Shown here: piece after piece, positions 13,272 to 27,668 of the stretch
Position numbering within the stretch: position 1 is the stretch's first letter
Layout of the letters: every line of letters begins with the position of its first letter
Origin: Ignavibacteria bacterium
Lineage (GTDB): Bacteria > Bacteroidota > Ignavibacteria > Kapaibacteriales > Kapaibacteriaceae
Assembly: GCA_016191145.1 (NCBI GenBank)
Contig: JACPPD010000007.1
Location: forward strand, 91,158 to 155,157
Reading direction: 5' to 3'
DNA length: 64,000 nt
Position numbers and translations under genes: made by a program
The notes under the pieces: generated by a model
What the model saw: only the letters and a program-made list of their open reading frames with translations
The model's database searches: none
What the model was told of the DNA's origin: nothing

Positions 13272-13674
13272 AGAATTGGCACGGCTCTTGTGAGGAAGCG
13301 ATTGCCATTAGGGTCGATCTTCGATAAGTACCGTTATTACGGGGGATAATCGGAGGATCCTGGGTGTGAACCTGTGAAATTGTCTTCACAGGTGGTGTGC
13401 TATCAGAATTTCGAAAGTAAGCTTTGACGCAGATGTTACTTAAGGGCACAATCGTTGGAAATGAAATCATCCTTAGTGGATGTGTGCATTTCACGTTTGG
13501 CGCAATCATCTGTCAGAGGTATTTTAGCGGCGCATTGGAGGCACCGCTCACCCGGTTGGGGGGTGGTGTGCGCTATTCCATCATTGGGGGCGGATTACAG
13601 GCAGTGTATGAGAGATAGATACTTTTGGGCCGGACCGGGCAAAACCGTTCCGAACAAACATTTGGAAAATGCAT

Positions 13675-13700
13675 GGCGCCGAAGGCGCCTTTTGGTGTTT
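13675..13700 (+). terminator. GC hairpin plus T-tract (terminator/attenuator-like) in leader of giant gene
   Basis: GGCGCC-GAA-GGCGCC followed by TTTTGGTGTTT, about 80 nt upstream of the SD-supported start at 13779. Confidence 0.4.
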
Positions 13701-13778
13701 ACTAATAAAATGGATAATCAAAAAAGTTTTGAAAACAAGACAGTCATTATCAATCGTAACTCTTTCTCGGAGGATTGT

Positions 13779-16700
13779 ATGAATCGTTTCGATTCCGCGT
13801 TATCTGCGCGGCAACGGGGCGGTGGGTTTGTTGAACGGTTCAAGGCCGTAGCAGCCACGCTGTTGTCGTTGCTTGTTGTGGGTTCTATTGCGGCATCGGC
13901 TCAGCCGACCCTTACACACGTCGGACCGCCACCGCCAGCAGCAGTATTCACCGCAGGTCAAATTTGCTCGGGCCAGACACCACAATTCGAAGTAGGTACC
14001 ACAGCCAAGCCTGTAACAACCTACAACTTGGTTGAGGGGAACGTAGCGCTCGAAGCCGAAGTTGGAGCCACTGATATCATTGGCAACCTCGGCGACGACC
14101 AGGTGTGGAAACTACCCGCGGGCGATATTCAGGCGGCAGCAGGGGGGAACTTTATATTCGAATTCTTTGGTCAGCCGCACAATCTCTCCACAGAGGGTTT
14201 GTTTATCGGTACAAACGGATTTGTTCGGTTCCAGGATGGCGATCCCACCAACGATGCAAACGTTGAACTGCTCGAAACGGGAATCATTGCCCAAAACATT
14301 CCGAATGTGGCCGGACCAAACGGTGCCGCCTACTTCCTGAATATTGACCTTGCACCACAGGCTGGTGAAGATGTCGACTGGGAAATTCAGGATGTTAATG
14401 GTGGTGATGCCCTGGTTCTCACGTTCCGGGATGTGTCTCAGTACAATCCTCTGCTAGTGTATCCATACCAGCAGGTTGAAGTACAGATTATTCTGTATCC
14501 GAACAATCACCCAAACACGCCAAATATGATCGAAGTCCGCCTGGGCAACTGGCCGGACCCGAACGTTATCCCTGCGCGCGTGCACACTATTGGTGTTGAG
14601 AACCAGTGCGGAACTGTTGCCTATGCTGATGCAGACCACAACGCCGATACATGGGCTGTTGCCAATGCTGCAGGCGAAGTAGCTGGCTATTCGATAACAT
14701 TCGATCCTCAGGCAGGAGCATCTCAAACGCTGACAACGACTCTCTATGTTGTTGGACCAAACGGTGTTATTAATACCTATTCAACATCGAGTGCGTCACC
14801 GGATGATATTACCAGATCTGGAGCTACGGCTGGTACAACGGGAATACCTGTTAGTATAACGTCGAATACTGCAGTTACGTCTGTAACTCCTGCAGGGCAG
14901 CTTACATTTTTTGCAGTCGTTGAATACGAAGACTGTATAATTGAAGTAACAAACACTGTAACGCTTACCGTAAATCCAACACCCACTGCGGTAACCATTA
15001 CCGGACCGGTGAACGTTTGTGTTGGTACTAACTATAATTACAATGTCCCGCTAAACAACGGTAATACGTATTCGTGGACATCTACCGATGGTTTCGCGAC
15101 GATTACGCCGGCAATACCCACCATTAATGCAAATACCGCAACGGTTAATTGGGCAACCGGATCAAACGGTGGCACAGCTCAGACTCTCACAAGTACGGAA
15201 ACAACGCCGGCAGGATGCCAGGCTGTTCATACTGTTAACGTCACTGTGTACACGGTGCCTAACGGAACCATTTCCGGTCCCACGCCAGTTTGTGCGAATT
15301 CGGCCGGCAATGTGTATTCAATTTCTGGTGGACCGTACGGAGCGTACCAATGGTCGATTACTGGCGCTCCTGCCGGAACTACAACGGGATCAACAACAGG
15401 GACGACGTTTTCCGTAAACTGGGGTGATTTTGCCCAGCCAGGTACTGCTCAATTCCCGCAGGTCAGGGTTACCGTTTCCAACGGTCCTGGCGGCCTGTGC
15501 TCGTTTACCGCAACTCCGCTTGTTGTTACGGTTAACCCGCGTCCACCTGTAAAGACAATCACTGCATCGGATGCTACTCCATGCGTAAACCAGACTATCA
15601 CGTATAGTGTGGGCCTTACCGCTGGCAACAACTATGCATGGACTGCGGCTGGCGGAACCTTCGCCTATACCAGTCCTGGTGCATACGTTAACGGCACACC
15701 TACGCTGAACCTGAATTCGGTTCAGTTGCAGTGGACAAATGCAGGTAGTGGTCGGTCTATGACGGTGAATGAAACAACACCTCAGGGTTGCCTTCGGACA
15801 ACAACGATGTCAGGTATTGTTGTAGAAGCATTACCGACGCCAGTCATTACCGGACCGTCGATTAACGTTTGCGGTTACCTTGCATCTGCCGGTGGCAACC
15901 CATCGTTTAACACTGTTCCTAACCCAATCCAGCACACCTACGCAGTTGCAGTTCCAAATGCATCAAATACGTATGCTTGGTCAATACCTGCAGCTTCAGG
16001 GTATATCGTTTCAGCTGGACCTGGGACACCATCGCCGACGCCGGGACCAGGTATTACATCTGTGTCTGGTCTGAACGTTACGCAGATAACAGTTCGTTGG
16101 AACAACCCGGCTATATCTGTTGCCCGCACTGTTAACGTTACAGAAACATCTGTTAACAATTGTGCAGGAAATGCTCCGACGTTCAACCTTACAGTGGTTC
16201 ATACACCAGAAGCTGCTAACTTCTCACTTGCAGGACCTGGTATTACAACTACCGATCCGTGTGCGAACACAACAGGTGTTATTTACACTGGTACGACAAC
16301 ACTACCGGCTGGAACACTTCAGCAGGTATATGTCCTTGCTGGTGGAACGCTTGTGTCTTCAGTCGATGCTTACCCGAATGTTACGGCAACGGTCAATTGG
16401 GGTAACGCAGCTACAGGAACACTTCGTCACGAAGCCACTGCTCCGACGGGTTGCGTGTCGTACGAAGAGTACGTTATAACAATTCGTCCGCTTCCAGAAG
16501 CCGATATTACAGGACCATCAACGGTCTGCGGTGGAACAACGGGCCAGGTTTATGGCGTTACCAACATCCAGAATGGCCCAATCACTCACAGTTGGTCATT
16601 TGCCAGTAACCCGGGTGGAATCGCATCGTTCCCGGGCGCAACAACGAACTCTACAGTAACGGTTGACTTTGCTAATCCTGGGGCTCAAACGATTGTTGTT

Positions 16701-19700
16701 CTTCAAGACTTCATCACCGGTCCTGGGCCATGGCTGTGCACGAACACCATTACCTACAACATCACCGTTAACCCAACTCCAGCGGCGCCAATTATTGCAG
16801 GCGCCGATGGTGGTGGAACTCCCGAGTATGTCTGCGCTGGCACCACTGAAGGGTACACTGTAACAGGTATAGGTGGTGGTACAACAACCATATCGGTTGT
16901 TGGTGGAACTCCAAGTCAGACAATTTTTGCCGGTGCAGGTCCGTTCAACTTCAACGTTACCTGGGGCTTTGTACCTGGTGGCGGTGCAGGAAGCATAACA
17001 GCCACTATTACACTGAACAACTGCCCAAGTACTCAAACGGTATTTCCAGTTACGGTTTCTCCGCTGCCGGCAGTGCCAATCTTTGAGTATTCTTTGGACA
17101 ACGTCACGTTCAGTACAACAATTCCGCCACTCTGCGTTTATAATGTCCCATTTTATGTTCGAGTACAGAACAGCACGGCAGGCGTAACATACAACTGGAA
17201 TGAATATCCCCAGATCTGCTGGCCTACTGCTTCTGCATCGGATAATCCTGGCGGTGGCACCAACGAATTGTGGACCATTACGAACTGGAACTGTGCGCAC
17301 CCGGCAAACGAGCTTTACATTGTTGCTTACGCACAAGACGATATCACCGGTTGTATTTCTCCTGGAACCGGATTGCCGGCTCCATGGACAGGTTTAGGTG
17401 CACCCTATACCAGCTCGCCAGCAGTCGTTGTTGCCCCGGTTCCGACTCCAGTTATTTCCGGCCCAACAGACGCATGTAATAACGTCTTCGATCCGGCTGG
17501 GATGAATGGAGCGACGGTTGACGCCGATCCTACCTCGTATACCTACACATACTCAACACCGCAAGTAGTTGGCAACTCCTATTCGTGGACTGTTACAAAC
17601 GGTTATGTGGTTGCTACATCAACGGACGGTGGGTCCACATGGACATACCTGAACCCCGTTGCAACAACGAATGGCGCACCAATTCTGAATGCTAATACCG
17701 TTCAGGTAGTGTTCTACGGACCAACACCGGGCAAGGTGAAGGTATCGGAAATTGCTCCGGGCGGATGTCAGGCAACAACCCTCGACTATAACGTAAATCT
17801 GAATCCATTCCCAATAGCGCAGTCTCTGGTATCTTGGTCACCCGAAGTGTGCTCTGGTGATTGGGGACTGTTAGCATCATTTAATTCCGAAGCAACCTTT
17901 ACCTACCGTGTTGAGACTTCGACAGACGGAGGGTCTACGTGGACGCCAACGCCTGGAGTAGGAACGCAGACTGGTAATGGTGGAGGTCTCTTATGGTTTA
18001 TTCCACCAGCATCAATCCCATATACTGCAGTTCCACCGAACATTACAACGTATACATTCAGGATAACTGCTCAGCACACCGCAACGGGTTGTGGATGGTA
18101 TCCAGTGTCGAACACGGATATCATCAACGTTAATCCGAAGCCGGCAGACAACATTCCTGTGGTAAACACCACACCGTTAACCTGCGAAGGTGATAACGTT
18201 GTTGTCGAAGTTGGCGATGGCGGCACACCATCGGAAAGCTGGGTGCAGTATCAGCTCATGCGTCGGCAGATCGCAGATCTTTCGACAGGAGCACCGATTG
18301 CACCAACACCGTACACATACGTTGGCAGTCCCCAAGTTGGTAATGGTATCGGGTCCATTCAGTTAATTGACAACACCGCTCCGGCAGGGGGCTATCCACT
18401 CCTGAATGCCGACGTATATCAATACCAAGTTGAAGCGGTAACAGACATGGCTCCTGCGCCGCCGCCCAATATTCAGTGCACAACTATGCTCGCCCAGACC
18501 GTCACTGAAAGAGTCTTTGCTCTTCCATTGGCACAGGTGGTGAGCTACACGCCAAATCCAATTTGCTGGGAAGCTGATCTTACGGTTGATCTTTCCGGTT
18601 CGCAGGATGGCGTTGAATATGAAATTCTCCGCGACGGTTTGAGCATGGCACCACCAGTTATCGTTGATGGTAATGGCGGACCTGTTCAAGTTATCGTACC
18701 TGCAGTGCAAGTGATGCCATCGAATCCGCTTTTCCCAACGGCTGTTGTGTTCTCTACACAGGCACGCTTGCGTACAGAGGCATTCCCACCATACGACAGA
18801 CCTATTCCTCCGTCGTCGTGTCCCAATACTTTCGGCTACGAAGAAGTTACCGTCAATCCAAAACCAGTGGCAGTTATCAATGGACCAGACGTAGCATGCG
18901 GCCCTTCTACAGTTGATTACACACCAGGACCATGGTGGGGTGGCTGGCCTTCTACATACGACTGGGCAATCCTGTTTGCAGCCGATCCGTATCCGGCCCC
19001 ACACAGCGATCCGCCTGTGGGCACGACTCCGCTATTTGCGAACAACACAGGATTTGGTACTGTAGATCCGTTCACAGTAGACTGGGGTGTTCACCTCTTG
19101 AGCTGCGATGGAACGTACAACCCGATTACGGTTGTGCTTCAGATGATTGAAACGAACCTGTTCAATTGTCCGGATACTGCATTCAAGGAAATCACAATCG
19201 AGCCTACACTCAGCGACGCTGTTATCAGCGGACCTACTCAGGCTTGTATCTATGGTGGTTTCGAACAACACCTAACAACGTACACCATCAGCCGTCCGAA
19301 TCCATGCATCTTCCCGGCAGGAACGACCTTCTTATGGAGCATGCCAACCGGACCGGTAATTGGCGTCATTCGCTCAGGTCAGGGTACTCCGACCATCGTT
19401 GTTGAGTGGACGCAAACTGGCGGCACTAACATCGGTACTATTCAGAGCACTGTAACACTTCCGCCGTCGCACGGTGGTTGTGCAACAACTGTGACCTACG
19501 ATGTGATTGTATATCCGCTGCCGCAGCCAATCGTGGTTGGACCCACATCGGTTTGCCAGGGCGATCAGAACGTGATTTACACTGCCGACTACTATGCCAC
19601 GGACAATTATGAGTGGATCGTTGTTGGCGGTACAATCAACGGCGGTTCCGGCTCAGGCACTATTGCCGATCCAGGTTACCTATCCAATCTTGCAGCCAAC

Positions 19701-22700
19701 ACAATCTCTGTTAACTGGCTTGATCAGGCAAATCCGAATGCCTATGTAAGACTCAATCAGGTAAGCGCAGCAGGTTGCTACAACACCAACACATTGCAAG
19801 TGACCGTGAACCCAACACCGACACCGGTAATTGGTGGTCCGGCAATCGTTTGCGACAACAGCGTTTATCAGTACTCTACGCAGAGCAACGCGCCCAACAA
19901 CGTGTATCAGTGGACGATCAGCGGTAATGCCGTTATCAACAATGGTGCAAATCAGGCGACCGTGACAATTCAAACGGGCGCCATCGGTGGAGGAACGCAA
20001 TTTGTTCTCGAGCTTACGGAAACCGTACAGGCTACCACCTGCACCAAGACCGTATCGCGAACCATTGACATTGTTGAGAAGCCGAATCCAACAATCACCC
20101 GCATTACTGCAGGTGGCGCAGTTGGTGGTGCATGCCTCAATCAGACAATCGAGTATGGCGATACCGATCCGGTAGCTGGCAACCCAGGGTACTCCTACAT
20201 GTGGACGGTGTATAACGGTTCAATCAGTGGATCGAACACTGCATCAACTGTGATTGTAACATGGAATACCATTGGCACCGGAACTGTAACACTTGCCAAG
20301 TGGCACACCAGCTCGCAGTGTACAACCACTGTAAGCATGGACGTCAACATCACCGCTCCGCCACAGCCGGCCATTTCCGGTCCGCTGCAGGTTTGCGGTG
20401 AAGGCGAGTACACATACAGCACTCCGTTTGTTGTTGGCAACACCTATGAATGGACAATCAGCGGCAACGGTACTATTACCTCCGGCGCAAACACGAATGC
20501 GGCCGTTATCAAATTTGATAATCCGCTTCCTGGATCAACGCTGAGTGCCGACATAACGGTTACAGAAAGCACAACACTCAGTGGATGTGAAGCAAGTGCC
20601 GTGGTAGAGGTTACTATCAACTACCAGCCACAGGTCCAAAACATAGATCGAATCGCTCCTGCAGGTCCAGTTGGACAAGCATGTCTGATGGATCAGATTA
20701 CCTATGCACTGCCAAACAACAACCCTGGTTCCACCTATCAGTGGACAGTTACCGGTGGCTCCATCGTTGGCAGCTCAACGAACTATGATGTAACCGTACA
20801 GTGGACCAGCGCTGGTGCACAGGTTCTCACAGTAGTTGAAACGGACGCATCTGGAGCCTGCGAAGCAACGTCGACGCTGAACGTCTCCGTGACGTACAAA
20901 CCAACACCTGCTATCTCGGGACCAGTGGCGCCTTGTACAGATGTTGATATCACGTACAGCACGCCAGCAGTGCCTGGCAGCACTTATCAGTGGTCGATTA
21001 CGCCGGGTGTTGGATACATTATGCTTACGGGTACAACATCCAATTACATTACCGTGAGATTCACAGCAGCTGGACCGTACACGATAACGCTTACCGAAGC
21101 AAACGGTCCGTGCGAAGTCACAACTTCTGTTGATATCAACGTTACCCAGCTTCCAACGCCCCTTATCACCAGAGTTTCGCCTCCTGGTAATGCGCAGTTG
21201 GCTTGCGAAGGCGACATTATCACCTATTCAACACCCGAAGTTGCAGGTAATTCCTACCTCTGGACGGTTGTTGGCGGTGGTACAATTCTCGGCTCCAACA
21301 CTTCGAATGAAGTAACAGTACAGTGGGTATCGCAGGGTACACATGCCCTGACAGTTCTCGAGACGACTCCGGGTGGCGGCTGCTTCGATGAAGCCACGCT
21401 TTGGGTTACAGTTACCTACAAGCCGACACCGAACATCAATGGTGCCAACGTTGCTTGTATCGAGAAGATCCTCACGTACTACACACCGGCAGTTGCAGGC
21501 GACACCTATGAATGGAGCATCACACCTGCCAATTCATTCTCTCCAGTTGTTGGCTATCCGAATTCAAACAGCATTACAGTTCAGTGGATTCTCCCTGGTC
21601 TGCATACTGTGACAGTAACTGAAACAAACGTTGCTGGCGGATGTGTGACAACCGTCTCCATGGATGTTCAGGTGAATGAAATTCCTGCACCATTCATCAC
21701 ATCGCCGACAGGTTATGGCAACCCTCCGGGACGCCGACCTGGCATCGTTTGCAACTTCAGTACGCACACGTATACAACGTTCCCAACACCTGGCAACACC
21801 TTCCACTTCTTTGTGACAGGTGGTACCATCATCGGCAACCCATACACTAACCAAGTTGTGGTTGAATGGGGTCCGGCTGGTATAGGTACAATCTGGGTAG
21901 TTGAGACAGTTCCAGGATCCGACTGCATCACGACGAAGCTCGACTCCATCGACATTCGTCCGACACCTGCACCGACCATCACTGGATCCAGCAATCCATG
22001 CGGCAACAGTCTCCAAACCTATTCAACGCCATTCGTTGCTGGTAACAGCTATGAGTGGACAGTTGTGGGAGCTGCATCTTGGTTTGTTGTTCCTGGTAAT
22101 CCGAATCAGATTCGTGTAACGTGGAATAGCCCAGTATGGCCAAACACTATTGCTGGCAGCGTCAGCGTTACCGAATGGGTCACGGATGTACTGCCTGATA
22201 AGTCATGCATCAATTCAACAACCCTTAACGTCACGGTACGCCCGAACCCACCAGTACCGACCATTACCGATACGTCTGTGGTTTGCGCAACCGACCTAAC
22301 GGATACACCGGCTACGATTAATCAGGTCACCTATTCATCGAGCGATCCGGGTGGCGTAAGCTTCCTGTGGACTATCTCGTCGAATGGTACCATCATCGGC
22401 AGCTCGACTTCTTCTTCGGTTCAGGTACAGTGGACAAACACGGGATTGACGCCGACGACAGGCACAATCACTGTTCGCCACACCTCGATACCTTGGGGTT
22501 GCGAAAACACTGCTTCGATGACGGTGACGATCAATCCATTGCCACGTCCTAACATTACTGGCGACCTCTCTGCTTGCCAGAACACAATCCATGCATACAG
22601 TACTCCTGGCTTACCAGGGCATTCTTACAGCTGGACTGTAGGTGGTGGGAACATCATTCGTTCGGGACAGGGAACACCAAACGTTATGGTTGAATGGACA

Positions 22701-24173
22701 CTTCCGGGTACCTATACTCTTACAGTGTCTGAAACCAACACGTACCGTTGTACTGCACAGGATCAGATCAGCGTGACCGTGAATGAGCTTCCGGATGTGA
22801 CGATCACTGCATCAGGTCCGACCACGTTCTGTCAGGGTGGCGACGTCACTCTCACTGCACCAATCGGATTTGAATCATACGTGTGGTCTACTGGCGAGAC
22901 GGCTCGCAGCATCGTGGTTCGTACTACTGGTCAGTATTGGGTTAAGGTCACCAACGAGTTTGGCTGCTCCAACAACTCCGATACAATTACCATTAACGTC
23001 TTCCCAAGCACGCTGCCAATCATTACTGTAAGCGGACCAACAACATTCTGCGAAGGTGGCTCTGTTGTTCTCACCGCTCCGTCGGGCTTCTCTAACTATC
23101 TGTGGTCGACAGGCGAAACATCGCAGTCAATCACGGTTACGCAGAGCGGCACCTACACAGTAACAATTGCAGACAACAACGGATGTACTGGAACATCAAC
23201 AGAAGTCGATGTTGTTGTGAACCCGAAACCGGCTCCAATCCTGACAGTTGTTGGTTCAACAACAGTTTGCTCAGGGGATAGCGTAGAAGTAAGGGCACCG
23301 GCTGGATACGTTTCCTACACGTGGATTTCAACGTCAGCTACCAACTATGGAACTGGACGCACGATCTTCGTTAGCCAGCAAGACGAAATCTACGTTGAGG
23401 TTGTTGATCTGAATGGATGCGTTGGCCAGTCGGATACGGTCAGCATCGAAGTTAGTCAGATTACACAGCCAGTAGTTATTCCAAGCGGACCAACAACGTT
23501 CTGCGAAGGCGGTTCTGTTGTACTCTCAGCTCCAGCAGGGTTTGCGTCCTACATCTGGTCGAATGGTGCTACAACACGCGAGATAACAGTCGAAGATGGC
23601 GGTGAATACTCAGTAACCGTCGTGAATGCTGTTCTCTGCGTGGCTGCTTCATCCAAGACAGAAGTAACGGTGAATCCGCTTCCGGAACGGCCATCAATCG
23701 AGCGCAGAGGAGATACTTTAAAGGCAATCTCCCCTGTAGCTGAAGCTTGGCAGTGGTACAAAAATGGAACTGAGATCACTGGCGCAAATGCTTCGTTCTT
23801 CATCGTTACGCAGGCAGGTATCTACCGCGTAGCAATCAAAGATGACAACACATGCTCGGCCATTTCAAATGGATTCGACGTGATTCTTACCGGTCTTGAT
23901 GATGATGTGGTTGCAGGAAAGGTCGGAGACATCAGACTCTACCCGAACCCAACAACCGGTATGTTCACTATCGAAGCTGATATTGCAAAATCCGGTGTGG
24001 TTTCCATCGAACTCGTCAACACTGTTGGCGAAATTGTGAAGACGATCACCGACGATTCGCAAGGCGGAGCGTTCAAGAAATCCATCGACATGGGAACACT
24101 TGCAAGTGGTGTATATAATGTAGTCGTCACGAGTGCTAACCAGCGCTGGACGGTACGGTTGGTTCGTCAGTAA
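13779..24173 (+). CDS. giant (~3460 aa) cell-surface adhesin-like protein with ~30 tandem Ig-like modules and T9SS C-terminal sorting domain
   Basis: GGAGG 5 nt upstream of ATG 13779, then a signal peptide (RFKAVAATLLSLLVVGSIAASA-QP). A roughly 400-aa N-terminal domain of unknown family is followed by about 26 repeats of ~85-90 aa (consensus P.P.ITGP..VC.G..Y.Y......G.TY.W.V.GG.I..G.......V.W...G...LTV.ET...GC, two Cys each). Four to five modules of a second type follow (GPTTFCEGGSV.LTAP.GF.SY.WS.GET...I.V...G.Y.V.V....GC). The C-terminus (LYPNPTTGMFTIEADIAKSGVVSIELVNTVGEIVKT...LASGVYNVVV...) matches the Por/T9SS CTD pattern. The ORF-track start at 13455 lies upstream of the hairpin and SD and is rejected. 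Confidence 0.85.
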   Translation: MNRFDSALSARQRGGGFVERFKAVAATLLSLLVVGSIAASAQPTLTHVGPPPPAAVFTAGQICSGQTPQFEVGTTAKPVTTYNLVEGNVALEAEVGATDIIGNLGDDQVWKLPAGDIQAAAGGNFIFEFFGQPHNLSTEGLFIGTNGFVRFQDGDPTNDANVELLETGIIAQNIPNVAGPNGAAYFLNIDLAPQAGEDVDWEIQDVNGGDALVLTFRDVSQYNPLLVYPYQQVEVQIILYPNNHPNTPNMIEVRLGNWPDPNVIPARVHTIGVENQCGTVAYADADHNADTWAVANAAGEVAGYSITFDPQAGASQTLTTTLYVVGPNGVINTYSTSSASPDDITRSGATAGTTGIPVSITSNTAVTSVTPAGQLTFFAVVEYEDCIIEVTNTVTLTVNPTPTAVTITGPVNVCVGTNYNYNVPLNNGNTYSWTSTDGFATITPAIPTINANTATVNWATGSNGGTAQTLTSTETTPAGCQAVHTVNVTVYTVPNGTISGPTPVCANSAGNVYSISGGPYGAYQWSITGAPAGTTTGSTTGTTFSVNWGDFAQPGTAQFPQVRVTVSNGPGGLCSFTATPLVVTVNPRPPVKTITASDATPCVNQTITYSVGLTAGNNYAWTAAGGTFAYTSPGAYVNGTPTLNLNSVQLQWTNAGSGRSMTVNETTPQGCLRTTTMSGIVVEALPTPVITGPSINVCGYLASAGGNPSFNTVPNPIQHTYAVAVPNASNTYAWSIPAASGYIVSAGPGTPSPTPGPGITSVSGLNVTQITVRWNNPAISVARTVNVTETSVNNCAGNAPTFNLTVVHTPEAANFSLAGPGITTTDPCANTTGVIYTGTTTLPAGTLQQVYVLAGGTLVSSVDAYPNVTATVNWGNAATGTLRHEATAPTGCVSYEEYVITIRPLPEADITGPSTVCGGTTGQVYGVTNIQNGPITHSWSFASNPGGIASFPGATTNSTVTVDFANPGAQTIVVLQDFITGPGPWLCTNTITYNITVNPTPAAPIIAGADGGGTPEYVCAGTTEGYTVTGIGGGTTTISVVGGTPSQTIFAGAGPFNFNVTWGFVPGGGAGSITATITLNNCPSTQTVFPVTVSPLPAVPIFEYSLDNVTFSTTIPPLCVYNVPFYVRVQNSTAGVTYNWNEYPQICWPTASASDNPGGGTNELWTITNWNCAHPANELYIVAYAQDDITGCISPGTGLPAPWTGLGAPYTSSPAVVVAPVPTPVISGPTDACNNVFDPAGMNGATVDADPTSYTYTYSTPQVVGNSYSWTVTNGYVVATSTDGGSTWTYLNPVATTNGAPILNANTVQVVFYGPTPGKVKVSEIAPGGCQATTLDYNVNLNPFPIAQSLVSWSPEVCSGDWGLLASFNSEATFTYRVETSTDGGSTWTPTPGVGTQTGNGGGLLWFIPPASIPYTAVPPNITTYTFRITAQHTATGCGWYPVSNTDIINVNPKPADNIPVVNTTPLTCEGDNVVVEVGDGGTPSESWVQYQLMRRQIADLSTGAPIAPTPYTYVGSPQVGNGIGSIQLIDNTAPAGGYPLLNADVYQYQVEAVTDMAPAPPPNIQCTTMLAQTVTERVFALPLAQVVSYTPNPICWEADLTVDLSGSQDGVEYEILRDGLSMAPPVIVDGNGGPVQVIVPAVQVMPSNPLFPTAVVFSTQARLRTEAFPPYDRPIPPSSCPNTFGYEEVTVNPKPVAVINGPDVACGPSTVDYTPGPWWGGWPSTYDWAILFAADPYPAPHSDPPVGTTPLFANNTGFGTVDPFTVDWGVHLLSCDGTYNPITVVLQMIETNLFNCPDTAFKEITIEPTLSDAVISGPTQACIYGGFEQHLTTYTISRPNPCIFPAGTTFLWSMPTGPVIGVIRSGQGTPTIVVEWTQTGGTNIGTIQSTVTLPPSHGGCATTVTYDVIVYPLPQPIVVGPTSVCQGDQNVIYTADYYATDNYEWIVVGGTINGGSGSGTIADPGYLSNLAANTISVNWLDQANPNAYVRLNQVSAAGCYNTNTLQVTVNPTPTPVIGGPAIVCDNSVYQYSTQSNAPNNVYQWTISGNAVINNGANQATVTIQTGAIGGGTQFVLELTETVQATTCTKTVSRTIDIVEKPNPTITRITAGGAVGGACLNQTIEYGDTDPVAGNPGYSYMWTVYNGSISGSNTASTVIVTWNTIGTGTVTLAKWHTSSQCTTTVSMDVNITAPPQPAISGPLQVCGEGEYTYSTPFVVGNTYEWTISGNGTITSGANTNAAVIKFDNPLPGSTLSADITVTESTTLSGCEASAVVEVTINYQPQVQNIDRIAPAGPVGQACLMDQITYALPNNNPGSTYQWTVTGGSIVGSSTNYDVTVQWTSAGAQVLTVVETDASGACEATSTLNVSVTYKPTPAISGPVAPCTDVDITYSTPAVPGSTYQWSITPGVGYIMLTGTTSNYITVRFTAAGPYTITLTEANGPCEVTTSVDINVTQLPTPLITRVSPPGNAQLACEGDIITYSTPEVAGNSYLWTVVGGGTILGSNTSNEVTVQWVSQGTHALTVLETTPGGGCFDEATLWVTVTYKPTPNINGANVACIEKILTYYTPAVAGDTYEWSITPANSFSPVVGYPNSNSITVQWILPGLHTVTVTETNVAGGCVTTVSMDVQVNEIPAPFITSPTGYGNPPGRRPGIVCNFSTHTYTTFPTPGNTFHFFVTGGTIIGNPYTNQVVVEWGPAGIGTIWVVETVPGSDCITTKLDSIDIRPTPAPTITGSSNPCGNSLQTYSTPFVAGNSYEWTVVGAASWFVVPGNPNQIRVTWNSPVWPNTIAGSVSVTEWVTDVLPDKSCINSTTLNVTVRPNPPVPTITDTSVVCATDLTDTPATINQVTYSSSDPGGVSFLWTISSNGTIIGSSTSSSVQVQWTNTGLTPTTGTITVRHTSIPWGCENTASMTVTINPLPRPNITGDLSACQNTIHAYSTPGLPGHSYSWTVGGGNIIRSGQGTPNVMVEWTLPGTYTLTVSETNTYRCTAQDQISVTVNELPDVTITASGPTTFCQGGDVTLTAPIGFESYVWSTGETARSIVVRTTGQYWVKVTNEFGCSNNSDTITINVFPSTLPIITVSGPTTFCEGGSVVLTAPSGFSNYLWSTGETSQSITVTQSGTYTVTIADNNGCTGTSTEVDVVVNPKPAPILTVVGSTTVCSGDSVEVRAPAGYVSYTWISTSATNYGTGRTIFVSQQDEIYVEVVDLNGCVGQSDTVSIEVSQITQPVVIPSGPTTFCEGGSVVLSAPAGFASYIWSNGATTREITVEDGGEYSVTVVNAVLCVAASSKTEVTVNPLPERPSIERRGDTLKAISPVAEAWQWYKNGTEITGANASFFIVTQAGIYRVAIKDDNTCSAISNGFDVILTGLDDDVVAGKVGDIRLYPNPTTGMFTIEADIAKSGVVSIELVNTVGEIVKTITDDSQGGAFKKSIDMGTLASGVYNVVVTSANQRWTVRLVRQ

Positions 24174-24201
24174 GAATTGACCACTGCAATATGAAAATAT
24201 A

Positions 24202-24236
24202 GAAGGCCGCACCTAGGTGCGGCCTTCTTTATTTTG
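24202..24236 (+). terminator. rho-independent terminator of giant gene
   Basis: GAAGGCCGCAC-CTAG-GTGCGGCCTTC perfect 11-bp stem followed by TTTATTTTG, about 30 nt after the stop codon. Confidence 0.85.
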
Positions 24237-24262
24237 TAACCACATGATCGCTCGTGTATCTT
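24234..24262 (+). promoter_or_regulatory. candidate sigma70-like promoter (TTGTAA-N17-TATCTT) reading into the heptamer repeat
   Basis: The -35-like hexamer overlaps the terminator T-tract and the -10-like hexamer ends 2 nt before the repeat. Sequence match only. Confidence 0.3.
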
Positions 24263-24263
24263 T

Positions 24264-24431
24264 AGTTCAGGGTTCCAGGTTCAAGGTTCCAGGTTCAGGG
24301 TTCCAGGTTCAGGGTTCAAAGTTCAAGGTTCAAAGTTCAAGGTTCCAGGTTCAGGGTTCAAGGTTCCAGGTTCAGGGTTCAAGGTTCCAGGTTCAGGGTT
24401 CCAGGTTCCAGGTTCCAGGTTCATAGTTCCA
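24264..24431. repeat. perfectly phased heptanucleotide tandem repeat (RGGTTCM)x24
   Basis: 24 contiguous 7-nt units (AGTTCAG GGTTCCA GGTTCAA ... AGTTCCA) with no indels. Sits between the terminator and the SD/start of the next gene. The track ORF 24217..24426 is only a translation of this repeat. Confidence 0.9.
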
Positions 24432-24471
24432 AGTGGTCGTAGTGCCGGGTGCCAAGTGCCAGGGAGTAATT

Positions 24472-25335
24472 ATGCAGGATTTATTCTTAGAGCTTATTGG
24501 AAACCGTGCAAAGTTCCAATTGCCATTTGTGTTGCTATTGTGCCTGCCTATTATGCAGGTATTGGCTGCATCGGGTGGCGTATCCCGTCAGAGCGCCTTC
24601 GGGTGCGGTCCCGGCGGATGCCATGGACCTACGGCCAGCTCCCAGACATCTGCTCGCATTAAGGAGGAGGAGTATGGTAGGCTGTCTTTTGAGCCGAATG
24701 AAAAGAGGAAGCTAACTCTTATTATAAATAACAATAACCGTCCGGCAGTCGGCTGCAATATTTCGGTTAAGACTACGAAGGGCGGCTACACAAATGCCGG
24801 GACACTTTCGACAATTCAGGGACAGGGACTGAGATTGTTGATTGGCGAGCTCACGCATGATTTCCAGCCTAAGGCTATGGCCTACGGTGAAGTACAATTT
24901 GAATTCGAATGGACGGCGCCACCTTCTGCAGGCACATACTTTCTGCATGCTGCAGTGAATGCCGTCAATATGAATGGTATTGCCGACGGCAACGACCAGT
25001 GGCAGGTAATGCAGGCAGTCGAAATCACCGTTTCGCCAACTAATTCTGTTTTCGAACAGAACAGCTCCAATCAGGCGCAAATCACGCCCCTTCCCGCTCA
25101 CGAACAAGTTAGCATTCACGCTCTGGTAGGGGGCGATGAAGCTGTGGATCTAAGAATCTTCGACATCTCTGGAAATATTGTTAAAGTAGCGTCGATCCGG
25201 CCGATGAATAACAATGTTGACTTTCTGTGGAATGGAACCGACGACGCTGATAGGCCTCTCCCGTCAGGCTTGTATCCTTTCAATATTGTTGCACCTGAAG
25301 CCGTCATCCGAGGCATCATTCTCTTTGAACGGTAA
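24472..25335 (+). CDS. secreted protein of unknown function with T9SS C-terminal sorting domain
   Basis: GGGAG SD 5 nt upstream, then a signal peptide (FVLLLCLPIMQVLAA). The C-terminal ~75 aa (VDLRIFDISGNIVKV...FLWNGTDDADRPLPSGLYPFNIV) fit the T9SS CTD pattern. Contains an unusual CGPGGCH motif. Confidence 0.6.
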   Translation: MQDLFLELIGNRAKFQLPFVLLLCLPIMQVLAASGGVSRQSAFGCGPGGCHGPTASSQTSARIKEEEYGRLSFEPNEKRKLTLIINNNNRPAVGCNISVKTTKGGYTNAGTLSTIQGQGLRLLIGELTHDFQPKAMAYGEVQFEFEWTAPPSAGTYFLHAAVNAVNMNGIADGNDQWQVMQAVEITVSPTNSVFEQNSSNQAQITPLPAHEQVSIHALVGGDEAVDLRIFDISGNIVKVASIRPMNNNVDFLWNGTDDADRPLPSGLYPFNIVAPEAVIRGIILFER

Positions 25336-25343
25336 CTGATTTT

Positions 25344-27668
25344 GTGAATGACAAGAAACCTATACTACATCAATCATTATCGGTTGGACTTCTAACACTG
25401 ATTGTATTCCTGTGTACAGCAGAAGTGAATGCGCAGTGGAAGAAACTTAACCTTCCTGGACAATATGCCAGTGGTTACTATCTCGATGTCTTCTTCCTAA
25501 AAGATAATCCCAACTATGGTTGGGCCTGCAGTATTGAAGGCTTTGTTGTAAGGACGACAGATGGTGGAGTAACCTGGCAGGGGAGTCGCACTTCCCGAAG
25601 CTTTTTGGAAAGTGTTCAGTTTTTAACGCCAACAATTGGCTATACATCGGGGCCTGCGGGTATTTATAGGTCGGACGACGGTGGCGCAACATGGAAAGAC
25701 ATTACACCACTTTCGTTAAATCTAAACCCAGGGAGCGGATTCCAGAACTCGCCATGGGGAAGCTATTTTATTAACCAAAATGAAGGTGTATTCCTTGCAG
25801 ATGGGTGCGGAAGTGTTCAGAGATTTTATCGCACAACCGACGGTGGCCAGAACTGGCAATACACAGTGGATAATATTGCCAATGGAAAACTCTCCGATGC
25901 TCTGATATTCCGAGACGGTTCTGGATTTGCTGTTGGAAGCGGCGTGCTTTGGAGAACAACCGACTATGGCGCGAACTGGGTCTTTCATTCATTCACCGGA
26001 TCTCGCATTTGGACAGAGGAACTAACATTCTATGCAGGCAGCATTCTGCTTCCTACTGCCGGGAATGACTGCGACGGCGCTCCAACCGGGATCGGCTCGC
26101 TGCGATACTCGACAGATAATGGTTTTAACTTTCGAGAGTTTCAAACCAATGCTAACATGTTTGGCTCCTTCCTACTCGATAAAAATCGGGGTTGGGGTGT
26201 GGGTAGTAACGCATCCGTTTATTATACCGAAGATGCCGGAAGAACCTGGGTATTGAGGAACTGTGGTATCAAGGGAGATATGGACGATATCTTCTTCCTC
26301 GACGACACAACAGGATGGGTTGTGGGCAATGGAATATACCGTTCAAACTTTAATCAACCCGAAAATCCTGTTCTGATTGAACCAGATTCAAACTTGATTG
26401 AATTGTGTAAAGGCGATTCAGTTTTTATCAGGGCTTCAGATGGTTTCTCCCAATACCGATGGAACGATGGAGTTTGGTCTCAAGGAAGATTAGTAAGTGC
26501 AGAAGGAACGTACATTGTAAGCGCATTTAATGAATTAACGTGCAACATTTTGTACGACACGTTAACCATAAAGTATAAACCCAGCAAGGATCCTGTAATT
26601 GAAGCCAGCAAGACAGAGATTTGTGAAGGAGATTCCATTGAACTGCGACTGGTTGGAGACTTCGTTTCACAGTCGTGGTCGACAAAGGATTCATCAAAGT
26701 CGATACGAATACGAAAGAGTGGAGTTTATTCGGTTACCACATTAGACATCTTTGGCTGCAGGCGAACAGCGTACAGTCCCTTTATCACGGTTCGCCCTTT
26801 ACCAGAACCAGTGATTACTGCAAACCGTAGTACAACAATTTGTATTGATGAAACAGTAACGCTGTCTGCCCCGCCCGGTTTAGATAAGTATGTTTGGTCG
26901 AATGGTTCAACCGAGCGGGCAATAGTAGTTAGCAAAGCTGGCAAGTATGCAGTGACTGTAACTAATGAATATGGCTGTACTGCAACATCGGACTCGGTTA
27001 GCATTACCGTACTTGATACAAAAAATAAAATTGAAATAAATCTCAGTAGTACAAATGGTGATTTTATTATTGCTGATCAAATTGTTGGGGAGAAAAGCTG
27101 TAATTATCTCACAATTCGCAACGTATCGTTAACGGAAGATCTCGTAATTGCTAAGCCTTGGATAATCGGCAATGTGATGTTTTCCATTCCTCAAGCACAG
27201 TTGCCAATTCGTATAGCTCCTCAACAAACCGCCACGCTCGAGCTGTGTGCCTCGGCAATTGACACAGGGTTGATTGAGGATACACTCTATTTGCCAGATA
27301 CATGCTCCCCAACACTAGTACCTTTGAAGACCAGAGGAACGTCGTTGGCATTTGAAGGTACGTCGAGATGCAGCGTTGGCGTTTCGACACTTGTGATCCG
27401 TGCAGGTAAAACATATCGTTTATCTGCCCCTTACCCAATGCCGGCTAATCAGCAGTTTGCCATAGAAGTTGAACCAGCAGCTTCGCAAACAACAGCAAGT
27501 ATGTTTGATGCACTGGGAATCGAACGTGTCCGGGCAAATGTTATTAGATTGGACAAGAATTCGCTCATTGAGTTTCGTACGGACAACCTGCCGGTTGGTG
27601 TTTATCAGGTTGTTATTGAAATTGATGGAGACGTAGTCAAATCGTATACAACGATAATACAGCGGTAA
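25344..27668 (+). CDS. secreted BNR-repeat (sialidase/Ycf48-like beta-propeller) protein with Ig-like modules and T9SS C-terminal domain
   Basis: Signal peptide, then six or more BNR/Asp-box motifs (TTDGGVTW, SDDGGATW, TTDGGQNW, TTDYGANW, STDNGFNF, TEDAGRTW). Three modules are homologous to the type-2 modules of the giant protein (ICIDETVTLSAPPGLDKYVWSNGSTERAIVV..GKYAVTVTNEYGC). The C-terminus is CTD-like (YPMPANQQFAIEV...VGVYQVVIEIDG). Confidence 0.75.
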   Translation: MNDKKPILHQSLSVGLLTLIVFLCTAEVNAQWKKLNLPGQYASGYYLDVFFLKDNPNYGWACSIEGFVVRTTDGGVTWQGSRTSRSFLESVQFLTPTIGYTSGPAGIYRSDDGGATWKDITPLSLNLNPGSGFQNSPWGSYFINQNEGVFLADGCGSVQRFYRTTDGGQNWQYTVDNIANGKLSDALIFRDGSGFAVGSGVLWRTTDYGANWVFHSFTGSRIWTEELTFYAGSILLPTAGNDCDGAPTGIGSLRYSTDNGFNFREFQTNANMFGSFLLDKNRGWGVGSNASVYYTEDAGRTWVLRNCGIKGDMDDIFFLDDTTGWVVGNGIYRSNFNQPENPVLIEPDSNLIELCKGDSVFIRASDGFSQYRWNDGVWSQGRLVSAEGTYIVSAFNELTCNILYDTLTIKYKPSKDPVIEASKTEICEGDSIELRLVGDFVSQSWSTKDSSKSIRIRKSGVYSVTTLDIFGCRRTAYSPFITVRPLPEPVITANRSTTICIDETVTLSAPPGLDKYVWSNGSTERAIVVSKAGKYAVTVTNEYGCTATSDSVSITVLDTKNKIEINLSSTNGDFIIADQIVGEKSCNYLTIRNVSLTEDLVIAKPWIIGNVMFSIPQAQLPIRIAPQQTATLELCASAIDTGLIEDTLYLPDTCSPTLVPLKTRGTSLAFEGTSRCSVGVSTLVIRAGKTYRLSAPYPMPANQQFAIEVEPAASQTTASMFDALGIERVRANVIRLDKNSLIEFRTDNLPVGVYQVVIEIDGDVVKSYTTIIQR

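Follow-up and report, generated by a model that had tools for sequence, protein, structure and literature searches.

A tandem heptanucleotide array in the putative leader of a secreted-protein gene of an Ignavibacteria bacterium

Introduction

What generates a long tandem array of 7-nt units in a bacterial chromosome, and whether the number of units can matter to the gene behind it, are questions raised by one locus in a metagenome-assembled genome (MAG) of an Ignavibacteria bacterium (GenBank assembly GCA_016191145.1). The stretch of DNA analysed here, called the window, comprises 64,000 nucleotides (contig JACPPD010000007.1, positions 91,158 to 155,157 of the forward strand), and the array lies at 24264-24431 of the window, upstream of a gene for a 287-aa secreted protein. 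The original prediction had described this array as a rare, non-coding microsatellite that might act as a slipped-strand phase-variation switch. From the analysis below, the array is a member of the described class of heptanucleotide simple-sequence repeats (SSRs) and no new kind of element, and it is most likely a slippage product that makes the length of a leader variable. The earlier interpretation was partly supported, in that the array is non-coding, variable and plausibly part of a leader, and is not a spacing switch.

Structure of the array

The array was delimited by reading the sequence, by Tandem Repeats Finder (TRF) and by pattern search.

24264-24431, + strand: heptanucleotide array, 24 units of R-GTTC-M-R

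Unit-by-unit reading gave 24 in-register 7-nt units with zero indels across these positions, exactly as predicted. The units comprised GGTTCCA (nine), GGTTCAA (five), GGTTCAG (five), AGTTCAA (two), and AGTTCAG, GGTTCAT and AGTTCCA (one each), so that the proposed consensus (A/G)GTTC(A/C)(A/G) described 23 units, the remaining one (GGTTCAT) ending in T. The tetranucleotide GTTC (unit positions 2-5) was constant in all 24 units, and variation was confined to positions 1, 6 and 7. TRF returned 22.7 copies with 80% matches at period 7 and 11.9 copies with 86% matches at period 14 (scores for the array, 199 and 222). The two-unit degenerate pattern GGTTCMRGGTTCMR, searched with one mismatch or none, gave 22 matches, all within the array and all on the + strand, against a shuffle expectation of 0.19; neither TRF nor the pattern search found a second such array elsewhere in the 64-kb window. 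As in heptanucleotide long SSRs, head-to-tail iterations of a 5-11-nt unit thus extended far beyond chance length.

The array had been called perfectly phased; its phase is perfect, but its units are impure. The longest perfect period-7 tract was 26 nt (3.7 units), and the longest perfect tract at any period tested was 67 nt at period 21 (24335-24401). The count of 24 units derives from a short-read MAG assembly, and an independent Logan contig breaks within the array and confirms just the last ~7 units. The Logan k-mer contigs L001 (1-51) and L221 (1-49) end or start within the array, and L225, a lone ~1-kb Logan contig, starts within its own array (1-35). Unit counts in MAGs are provisional and need caution, because such repeats break short-k assemblies.

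Orthologous loci and turnover

Five related contigs (L221-L225) were obtained by exact-protein look-ups, and pairwise identities of the 287-aa gene divided the loci into three array-bearing lineages and one array-less clade, as listed below.

Window: gene identity 100%; 24 units
L222 / L221: gene identity to window 87.6% / 87.7%; 19 units in L222, L221 cut inside the array
L225: gene identity to window 89.2%; at least 4.7 units (contig cut)
L223 / L224: gene identity to window 75.4% / 74.7%; no array

The three array-bearing lineages shared 84-89% mutual gene identity and carried the array at one common site, where it has persisted through 11-16% gene divergence. In L222 the array occupies exactly the site of the window array, and its 19 units are of another composition (AGTTCAT, nine; AGTTCAA, four; GGTTCAA, four; GGTTCAT and AGTTCGT, one each). 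Copy number and unit composition therefore differ between related genomes, as they do in heptanucleotide long SSRs, and the expected length variability was found in the form of hypervariability between relatives (24, 19 and at least 4.7 units), as slipped-strand tracts behave. L221, from a different sample, was identical to L222 at 895 of 896 positions of flank and gene; inside the array, L221 had three and L222 four AGTTCAT units, and an AGTTCAA unit of L221 replaced a GGTTCAA unit. A change from three to four units in a perfect run is what slippage predicts. A second, GTGCC-type heptamer next to the array varied as well, with three identical units in the window and L222 and six degenerate ones in L225, where they follow the end of the GTTC array (41-82); the change in copy number of this neighbouring GTGCCNN heptamer (3 vs 6) supports a slippage origin.

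L223 and L224 lack the array and retain the upstream terminator and most of a promoter-like box, TTGTAA-N17-(T/A)ATCT(T/G); past the box, neither their leader nor their first codons are related to those of the window. Since the array is present in three related lineages and absent from two relatives at 74-75% identity, these comparisons show it to be lineage-specific, having arisen once and undergone rapid turnover. The rest of the leader also differs in the array-bearing lineage, as do the first ~17 codons (the signal-peptide n-region) of the 287-aa gene, homology restarting near ...FVL..C..MQVLAASGG (window 24432-24525 vs L223 3870-4000 and L224 4060-4190).

No contig was retrieved by exact matching of the 287-aa protein or of its database twin P0001; the 774-aa protein encoded next downstream led to a single Logan contig, whose sequence breaks off within the array. 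A protein-based metagenome scan and a scan with the exact 25-nt downstream flank gave no match, and a second protein search with the 774-aa protein gave no further close relatives with upstream sequence.

The orthologous loci also settled the coding status. A 7-nt unit would yield a 7-aa repeat in any frame, and in the window array two + frames are open and the third has a single stop, so that a heptapeptide-repeat protein could be imagined. The start of such a frame would fall within the terminator hairpin, and each + frame of the L222 array contains 2-5 stops and each - frame 6, which closes all six frames and refutes the coding explanation, now given practically no weight. The array is accordingly intergenic with no conserved reading frame, as expected of a heptanucleotide long SSR, and the 69-aa open reading frame (ORF) is an artefact, as had been proposed.

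Position of the array and flanking signals

The following features flank the array.

24201-24228, + strand: intrinsic terminator hairpin of the giant gene (12-bp stem, 8 G-C pairs, 4-nt loop, T-run)
24234-24262, + strand: promoter-like box TTGTAA-N17-TATCTT (read from the sequence)
24442-24462, + strand: second heptamer mini-array, GTGCCGG GTGCCAA GTGCCAG (read from the sequence)
24461-24466, + strand: Shine-Dalgarno (SD)-like AGGGAG, 5 nt before the ATG at 24472
24472-25335, + strand: gene for a 287-aa secreted protein with a choice-of-anchor V domain and an Ig-like tail resembling those of the type IX secretion system (T9SS) (profile matches)
25344-27668, + strand: gene for a 774-aa BNR/Ycf48-like protein (PF14870, PF02012, PF18962)

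The strong terminator that had been assigned to the upstream giant gene (13455-24173, 3572 aa, with a clear C-terminal T9SS sorting domain) was confirmed. It is kept in four orthologous loci (alignment A1, columns 52-80), with one compensatory change in the stem (window and L222, A-T; L223 and L224, G-C) and differing loops.

The promoter-like box was present where it had been reported, 2 nt before the array start. It is largely kept in each of the four orthologous loci, two of which have no array, and was the sole match to a relaxed TTTG-N18-21-TAnnTTT pattern in the intergenic DNA of the window, where such regions are too few to establish promoters of the Bacteroidetes -33/-7 type for this genome. 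It can alternatively be read as TTTG-N20-TATCTTTA, and the pair TTGTAA-N17-TATCTT was not listed by a consensus promoter scan. That scan gave no pair in the array itself or in the 40 nt from there to the ATG, its + strand candidates lying only in downstream coding sequence. The box may function as the promoter of the 287-aa gene. Because the -10-like hexamer precedes the entire array, the array would then be part of the 5' leader and not a -35/-10 spacer. Transcription of the array as a leader is plausible in view of the retention of the box in the four loci, two of them array-less. If the pair is the promoter, the leader would be ~210 nt long with the array, as against ~70-80 nt in the array-less relatives. 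As in SSR contingency loci, the tract thus stands between a promoter-like box and the SD sequence and ATG, with the transcription start placed by presumption; the pure, high-slippage tract of such loci was not found, the perfect period-7 run being 26 nt.

Between the array and the gene, the predicted spacing of 40 nt to an SD-supported start proved correct. The window and L222 share all of the 38 nt ahead of the ATG (TCGTAGTGCC...GTAATT, 24434-24471), despite 87.6% gene identity, and the final 2 nt of the GTGCC mini-array overlap the SD sequence. The downstream product, predicted as a 288-aa protein with a C-terminal sorting domain, is 287 aa long; it matched NF041895 (choice-of-anchor V) with 84.5 bits and PF13860 (FlgD_ig) with 32 bits, and its T9SS tail is weakly supported (TIGR04183, 16 bits; cut-off, 23). 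Its database name is Ignavibacteria MAG hypothetical protein, HYX66_04900. The 774-aa gene starts 8 nt beyond the 287-aa gene, and the two are probably co-transcribed; matches of the 774-aa protein to T9SS tails were also below curated cut-offs (24.0 bits for PF18962, cut-off 27, and 17.7 bits). Gene order at the locus is common to all orthologous loci. In the window, the neighbours are the giant T9SS protein, the choice-of-anchor V protein, the BNR protein and paa genes.

No significant structure was predicted for the leader RNA relative to shuffled sequences (z = -0.9), and the array itself was less structured than mononucleotide shuffles. A search of the window against Rfam 15 gave no match at gathering thresholds; sub-threshold matches all lay over the terminator, to generic terminator-containing leader or small-RNA models, and none over the array. 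Resemblances of the unit to the tRNA T-loop (GGTTCRA), RNase E sites, Rho rut sites and anti-SD sequences were considered and set aside as short resemblances offering nothing testable, the rut idea suiting only the opposite orientation of the array.

Heptamer arrays in other genomes and phages

The rarity attributed to such repeats needs to be qualified, since heptanucleotide arrays are described and recurrent (PMC4679880) and were readily found in many phyla. Four consecutive GGTTCMR units were sought in 185,579 species-representative genomes and occurred in at least 120 stretches. The matches listed came from Acidobacteriota, Planctomycetota, Lentisphaerota, Desulfobacterota, Methylomirabilota, Bacteroidota, Ignavibacteriota, Proteobacteria, Patescibacteria and others; they were frequently at contig ends, and some genomes held several. 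Among these matches, ~70% were intergenic on a crude ORF map and the orientation relative to flanking genes was inconsistent; within co-directional gene pairs, the G-rich strand was the template in 36 cases and not in 14, a tendency opposite to the arrangement in the window. The commonest variant elsewhere was pure GGTTCAG, equivalent to (GGGTTCA)n, a telomere-like canonical G3N4 quadruplex motif, which made up 48 of the 120 genome stretches listed and 19 of the 55 viral stretches given below.

Viral contigs were scanned in the same way, with the following counts.

GGTTCMR, four units: 55 stretches
Five composition-matched scrambles: 8, 10, 26, 12 and 21 stretches
TAACTGA, a single published heptamer: 32 stretches
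Pure GGTTCAG (subset of the 55): 19 stretches

GGTTC-type units were thus moderately enriched in viral contigs, at ~2-7 times the scrambled controls, which is unexceptional; they were not commoner than the published TAACTGA heptamer. The control heptamer TGCTGMR occurred in at least nine stretches in the 40-kb viral contig IMGVR_UViG_3300028840_003139 (L240, L241, L252, L255) and in at least six in the 41-kb viral contig IMGVR_UViG_3300005578_000008 (L246, L251, L254, L259), which suggests that some phage genomes are peppered with a single heptamer.

A census of repeat periods was made over L002-L176 (~1.3 Mb from many phyla and phages), a biased sample in that these loci had been fetched for their GGTTCMR arrays. 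Period-7 arrays with four or more units numbered 279, of which 71 lacked the GTTC core and represented ~60 different heptamers. Periods 4-6 and 8-12 gave 0-6 arrays each per collection, and no more than 8 with two collections pooled, so that period 7 stood at least 30-fold above any other period tested (4-12 nt) in those loci. Compound arrays were also seen, namely GGTTTAA beside GGTTCAA in a cultured Galbibacter isolate, GGTTCAA beside GGTGCAA, GGTTCAA beside AAATCGA, and GGTTCAA beside a T-rich heptamer-like tract (compound-array loci: L067 7760-7996, L059 3880-3960, L066 562-650, L053 5223-5330). The window follows this compound pattern, with GTTC-type and GTGCC-type units side by side. The adjoining of unrelated heptamers, together with the dominance of period 7, points to a generating process that is period-specific and largely sequence-independent.

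Paired arrays were observed in Acidobacteriota MAGs, in which a GGTTCAG-type array and an inverted CTGAACC-type array stand 5-110 nt apart in intergenic DNA and would form near-perfect hairpins of 110-190 nt (minimum free energy, -60 to -127 kcal/mol). These hairpins (L002 2340-2520, L017 705-825, L041 4455-4620, L052 3900-4010, L060 3930-4115, L072 5095-5285) recall the repeat-arm hairpin in the 5' untranslated region (5' UTR) of the hmw genes of Haemophilus influenzae.

Explanations considered

The explanation that we favour, with moderate confidence, is that the array is a slippage-generated, fast-evolving heptanucleotide SSR in a leader, with modest graded tuning of expression as its likeliest effect. 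The array would have arisen in one Ignavibacteria lineage directly downstream of the conserved promoter-like box, and would thereby form part of the 5' leader transcribed ahead of two secreted, T9SS-type proteins encoded in one operon. As units of 7 nt, and blocks of 21 nt, are gained, lost or homogenised, the leader would change in length with the SD region left intact, and the consequence would be a modest graded shift in mRNA level or translation and no on/off switch. That unit number affects expression at all is suggested by analogy, the precedent for graded tuning being the transcribed (ATCTTTC)n tract of H. influenzae hmw1A. A sequence-independent preference of slippage for 7-nt units fits the dominance of period 7, as Mrazek 2007 reported according to PMC4679880. 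Several observations weigh against this explanation. The promoter-like box is weak, scoring 8/12 against the sigma-70 consensus, which may not be the promoter type of the host; the difference between L221 and L222 sits at the end of a k-mer-assembled contig; no inverted copy of the array was found on the - strand of the window, so that a complementary arm of the hmw type is absent there; strict constancy of GTTC is not predicted by pure neutral slippage; and, with a longest perfect run of 3.7 units, slippage may be slow and the effect on expression possibly nil. The same slippage could also have left a selectively neutral by-product, persisting without effect on expression in a tolerant stretch of the leader. 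This alternative has perhaps half the appeal of the favoured one: relatives do without the array, unit number and composition drift freely, the tract is impure, the arrays of other genomes have no consistent position or orientation relative to genes, ~60 unrelated heptamers are arrayed in the same loci, and neither RNA structure nor a known RNA family was found. It is made doubtful by the retention of the array at one site over 11-16% gene divergence with its GTTC core intact, by the complete conservation of the 38 nt after it, and by the 168 nt that the array adds to the leader right behind the promoter-like box, an addition not likely to be wholly inconsequential.

The constancy of GTTC bears on a further possibility, an array of binding sites in which each GTTC-N3 heptad holds one protein subunit and a cooperative filament blocks or modulates expression, either on double-stranded DNA, like the ribbon-helix-helix protein omega/ParB of pSM19035, or on single-stranded RNA, like cold-shock or oligonucleotide-binding (OB)-fold proteins at ~7 nt each; precedents are available (PMC9499535; binding of CspB to heptamers is discussed in PMC4679880). 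GTTC was constant in 43 of 43 units of the window and L222, and at least 7-8 variant states all fell at the other three (spacer) positions; the chance of such clustering is ~0.008-0.02 when corrected for the choice of positions, for units that, where copied by slippage, are not independent. Variation was weakly clustered also in the GTTC-core arrays of other genomes (85% vs 77% expected, reached in 88 of 2000 simulations), the non-GTTC arrays offering too few impure examples (n = 3) for comparison. The perfect 21-bp higher-order period (two helical turns) and the excess of GGTTCMR over its scrambles in viral contigs agree with binding as well. These statistics are modest (p ~0.01-0.04), no candidate regulator gene stands beside the array, the array is downstream of the -10-like box and not over it, orientation relative to genes is inconsistent across genomes, and unrelated heptamers adjoin GGTTC arrays here and elsewhere, which argues for specificity of period and not of sequence; binding sites are therefore considered improbable. 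Equally improbable is the broader proposal that a conserved cellular machine covering 7 nt produces period-7 arrays or binds to them (it could be a heptamer-expanding polymerase or repair complex, or a coating OB-fold or ribbon-helix-helix protein) and that the window array is a regulated protein-nucleic acid filament on the leader of an operon for secreted cargo; under it, the GTTC core, the 21-bp period, the preference for period 7 and the Acidobacteriota hairpins would reflect function and not mutational accident. A G-run every 7 nt could instead form a G-quadruplex acting on DNA or RNA, and the commonest variant elsewhere has the canonical motif. This is very unlikely for the window array, in which four G-runs of at least three with loops of 1-7 nt were not found, runs being mostly GG and GGG runs never closer than 14 nt; with quadruplex energies enabled, the minimum-energy fold still uses no quadruplex, and the L222 ortholog is mostly AGTTCAT, with single Gs. 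Promoter SSRs do set the -35/-10 spacing in host-adapted pathogens, and a classic phase-variation switch of this kind was among the mechanisms originally suggested. Here it is hardly credible: the only conserved promoter-like pair is upstream of all 168 nt of the array, no pair spans or follows the array, no multiple of 7 allows 16-18-nt spacers between hexamers within it, and, the tract being impure and a 7-nt change in a leader having no frame consequence, a high-frequency switch of the classic type is likewise not supported.

If unit number tunes expression, the 'rheostat' control of surface and secreted proteins by SSRs, so far studied almost only in host-adapted pathogens, would extend to free-living environmental bacteria of the Fibrobacteres-Chlorobi-Bacteroidetes (FCB) group. 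The dominance of period 7 in array-bearing loci across phyla may matter more than the locus, offering a computational route into the unexplained heptanucleotide dominance of bacterial long SSRs; it and the heptad hairpins of Acidobacteriota are more intriguing leads than the locus itself.

Comparison with known systems

Groups of 7-10 omega heptads (WATCACW), some direct and some inverted, lie over plasmid promoters beside the omega gene. In the omega/ParB protein of pSM19035, a dimer binds each 7-bp heptad, and at least 4 contiguous gapless heptads are required (PMC9499535). The window array has 24 such contiguous 7-bp units, but these are direct, chromosomal and downstream of the -10-like box, with no heptad overlapping a promoter and no cognate ribbon-helix-helix gene at the locus. 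The (AGAT)n repeat of Moraxella catarrhalis uspA2, as cited in PMC4679880, is a strain-variable 5'-UTR repeat with a copy-number optimum for expression. As a repeat in the leader of a surface-protein gene it resembles the window array in its putative leader, but its unit is a tetranucleotide and its host a pathogen. A literature search with literal repeat strings matched only Ig-kappa leader sequences in mammalian vectors.

The cyanobacterial STRR (short tandemly repeated repetitive) sequences of Mazel et al. 1990 are reportedly tandem non-coding heptanucleotides of unknown function, with units CCCCAGT, TTGGTCA and CAACAGT that are said to form highly dispersed multi-copy families in each genome. 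Tandem non-coding heptanucleotides are common to both cases; the unit sequences differ. The TAACTGA heptamer repeats of Beggiatoaceae, Cyanobacteria and Bacteroidetes, whose mechanism is not known, are described by MacGregor 2015 (PMC4679880); long arrays in Bacteroidetes (43 copies or fewer) are intergenic, forward relative to the downstream ORF and beside other heptamers, and close relatives have shorter, repeat-free intergenic regions (PMC4679880). The window array likewise is intergenic and in forward orientation upstream of an ORF. TAACTGA sets usually have 2-6 copies a few nt from a start codon and number hundreds per genome, whereas the window holds one long array of another unit (RGTTCMR) 40 nt from the start, with no second one in 64 kb, and is not assigned to the TAACTGA family.

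The (ATCTTTC)n tracts of H. influenzae hmw1A/hmw2A have 9-28 copies, are transcribed in the 5' UTR and give graded expression inverse to copy number (PMC12721329, PMC2424069); their repeats pair with a G-rich complementary arm to form a long hairpin cleaved by RNase III (PMC12721329). A 7-nt unit upstream of a secreted-protein gene is common to this system and the window array. The hmw tract, in H. influenzae, is pure and needs its arm, whereas the window array, in a free-living groundwater-type bacterium, is impure and has neither an arm nor significant predicted structure. Since both the pure tract and the complementary arm are lacking, the array may work like hmw but is not a member of that type.

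To our knowledge, neither this unit nor Ignavibacteria was described in the survey of Mrazek 2007. As that survey is cited in PMC4679880, heptanucleotides are the most abundant class of long SSRs, for which polymerase-related slippage has been proposed. In so far as PMC4679880 conveys the LSSR5-11 class of Mrazek, Guo and Shah 2007, the array resembles it in its tandem heptamers, non-coding site, free-living environmental host, sporadic distribution and strong preference for period 7.

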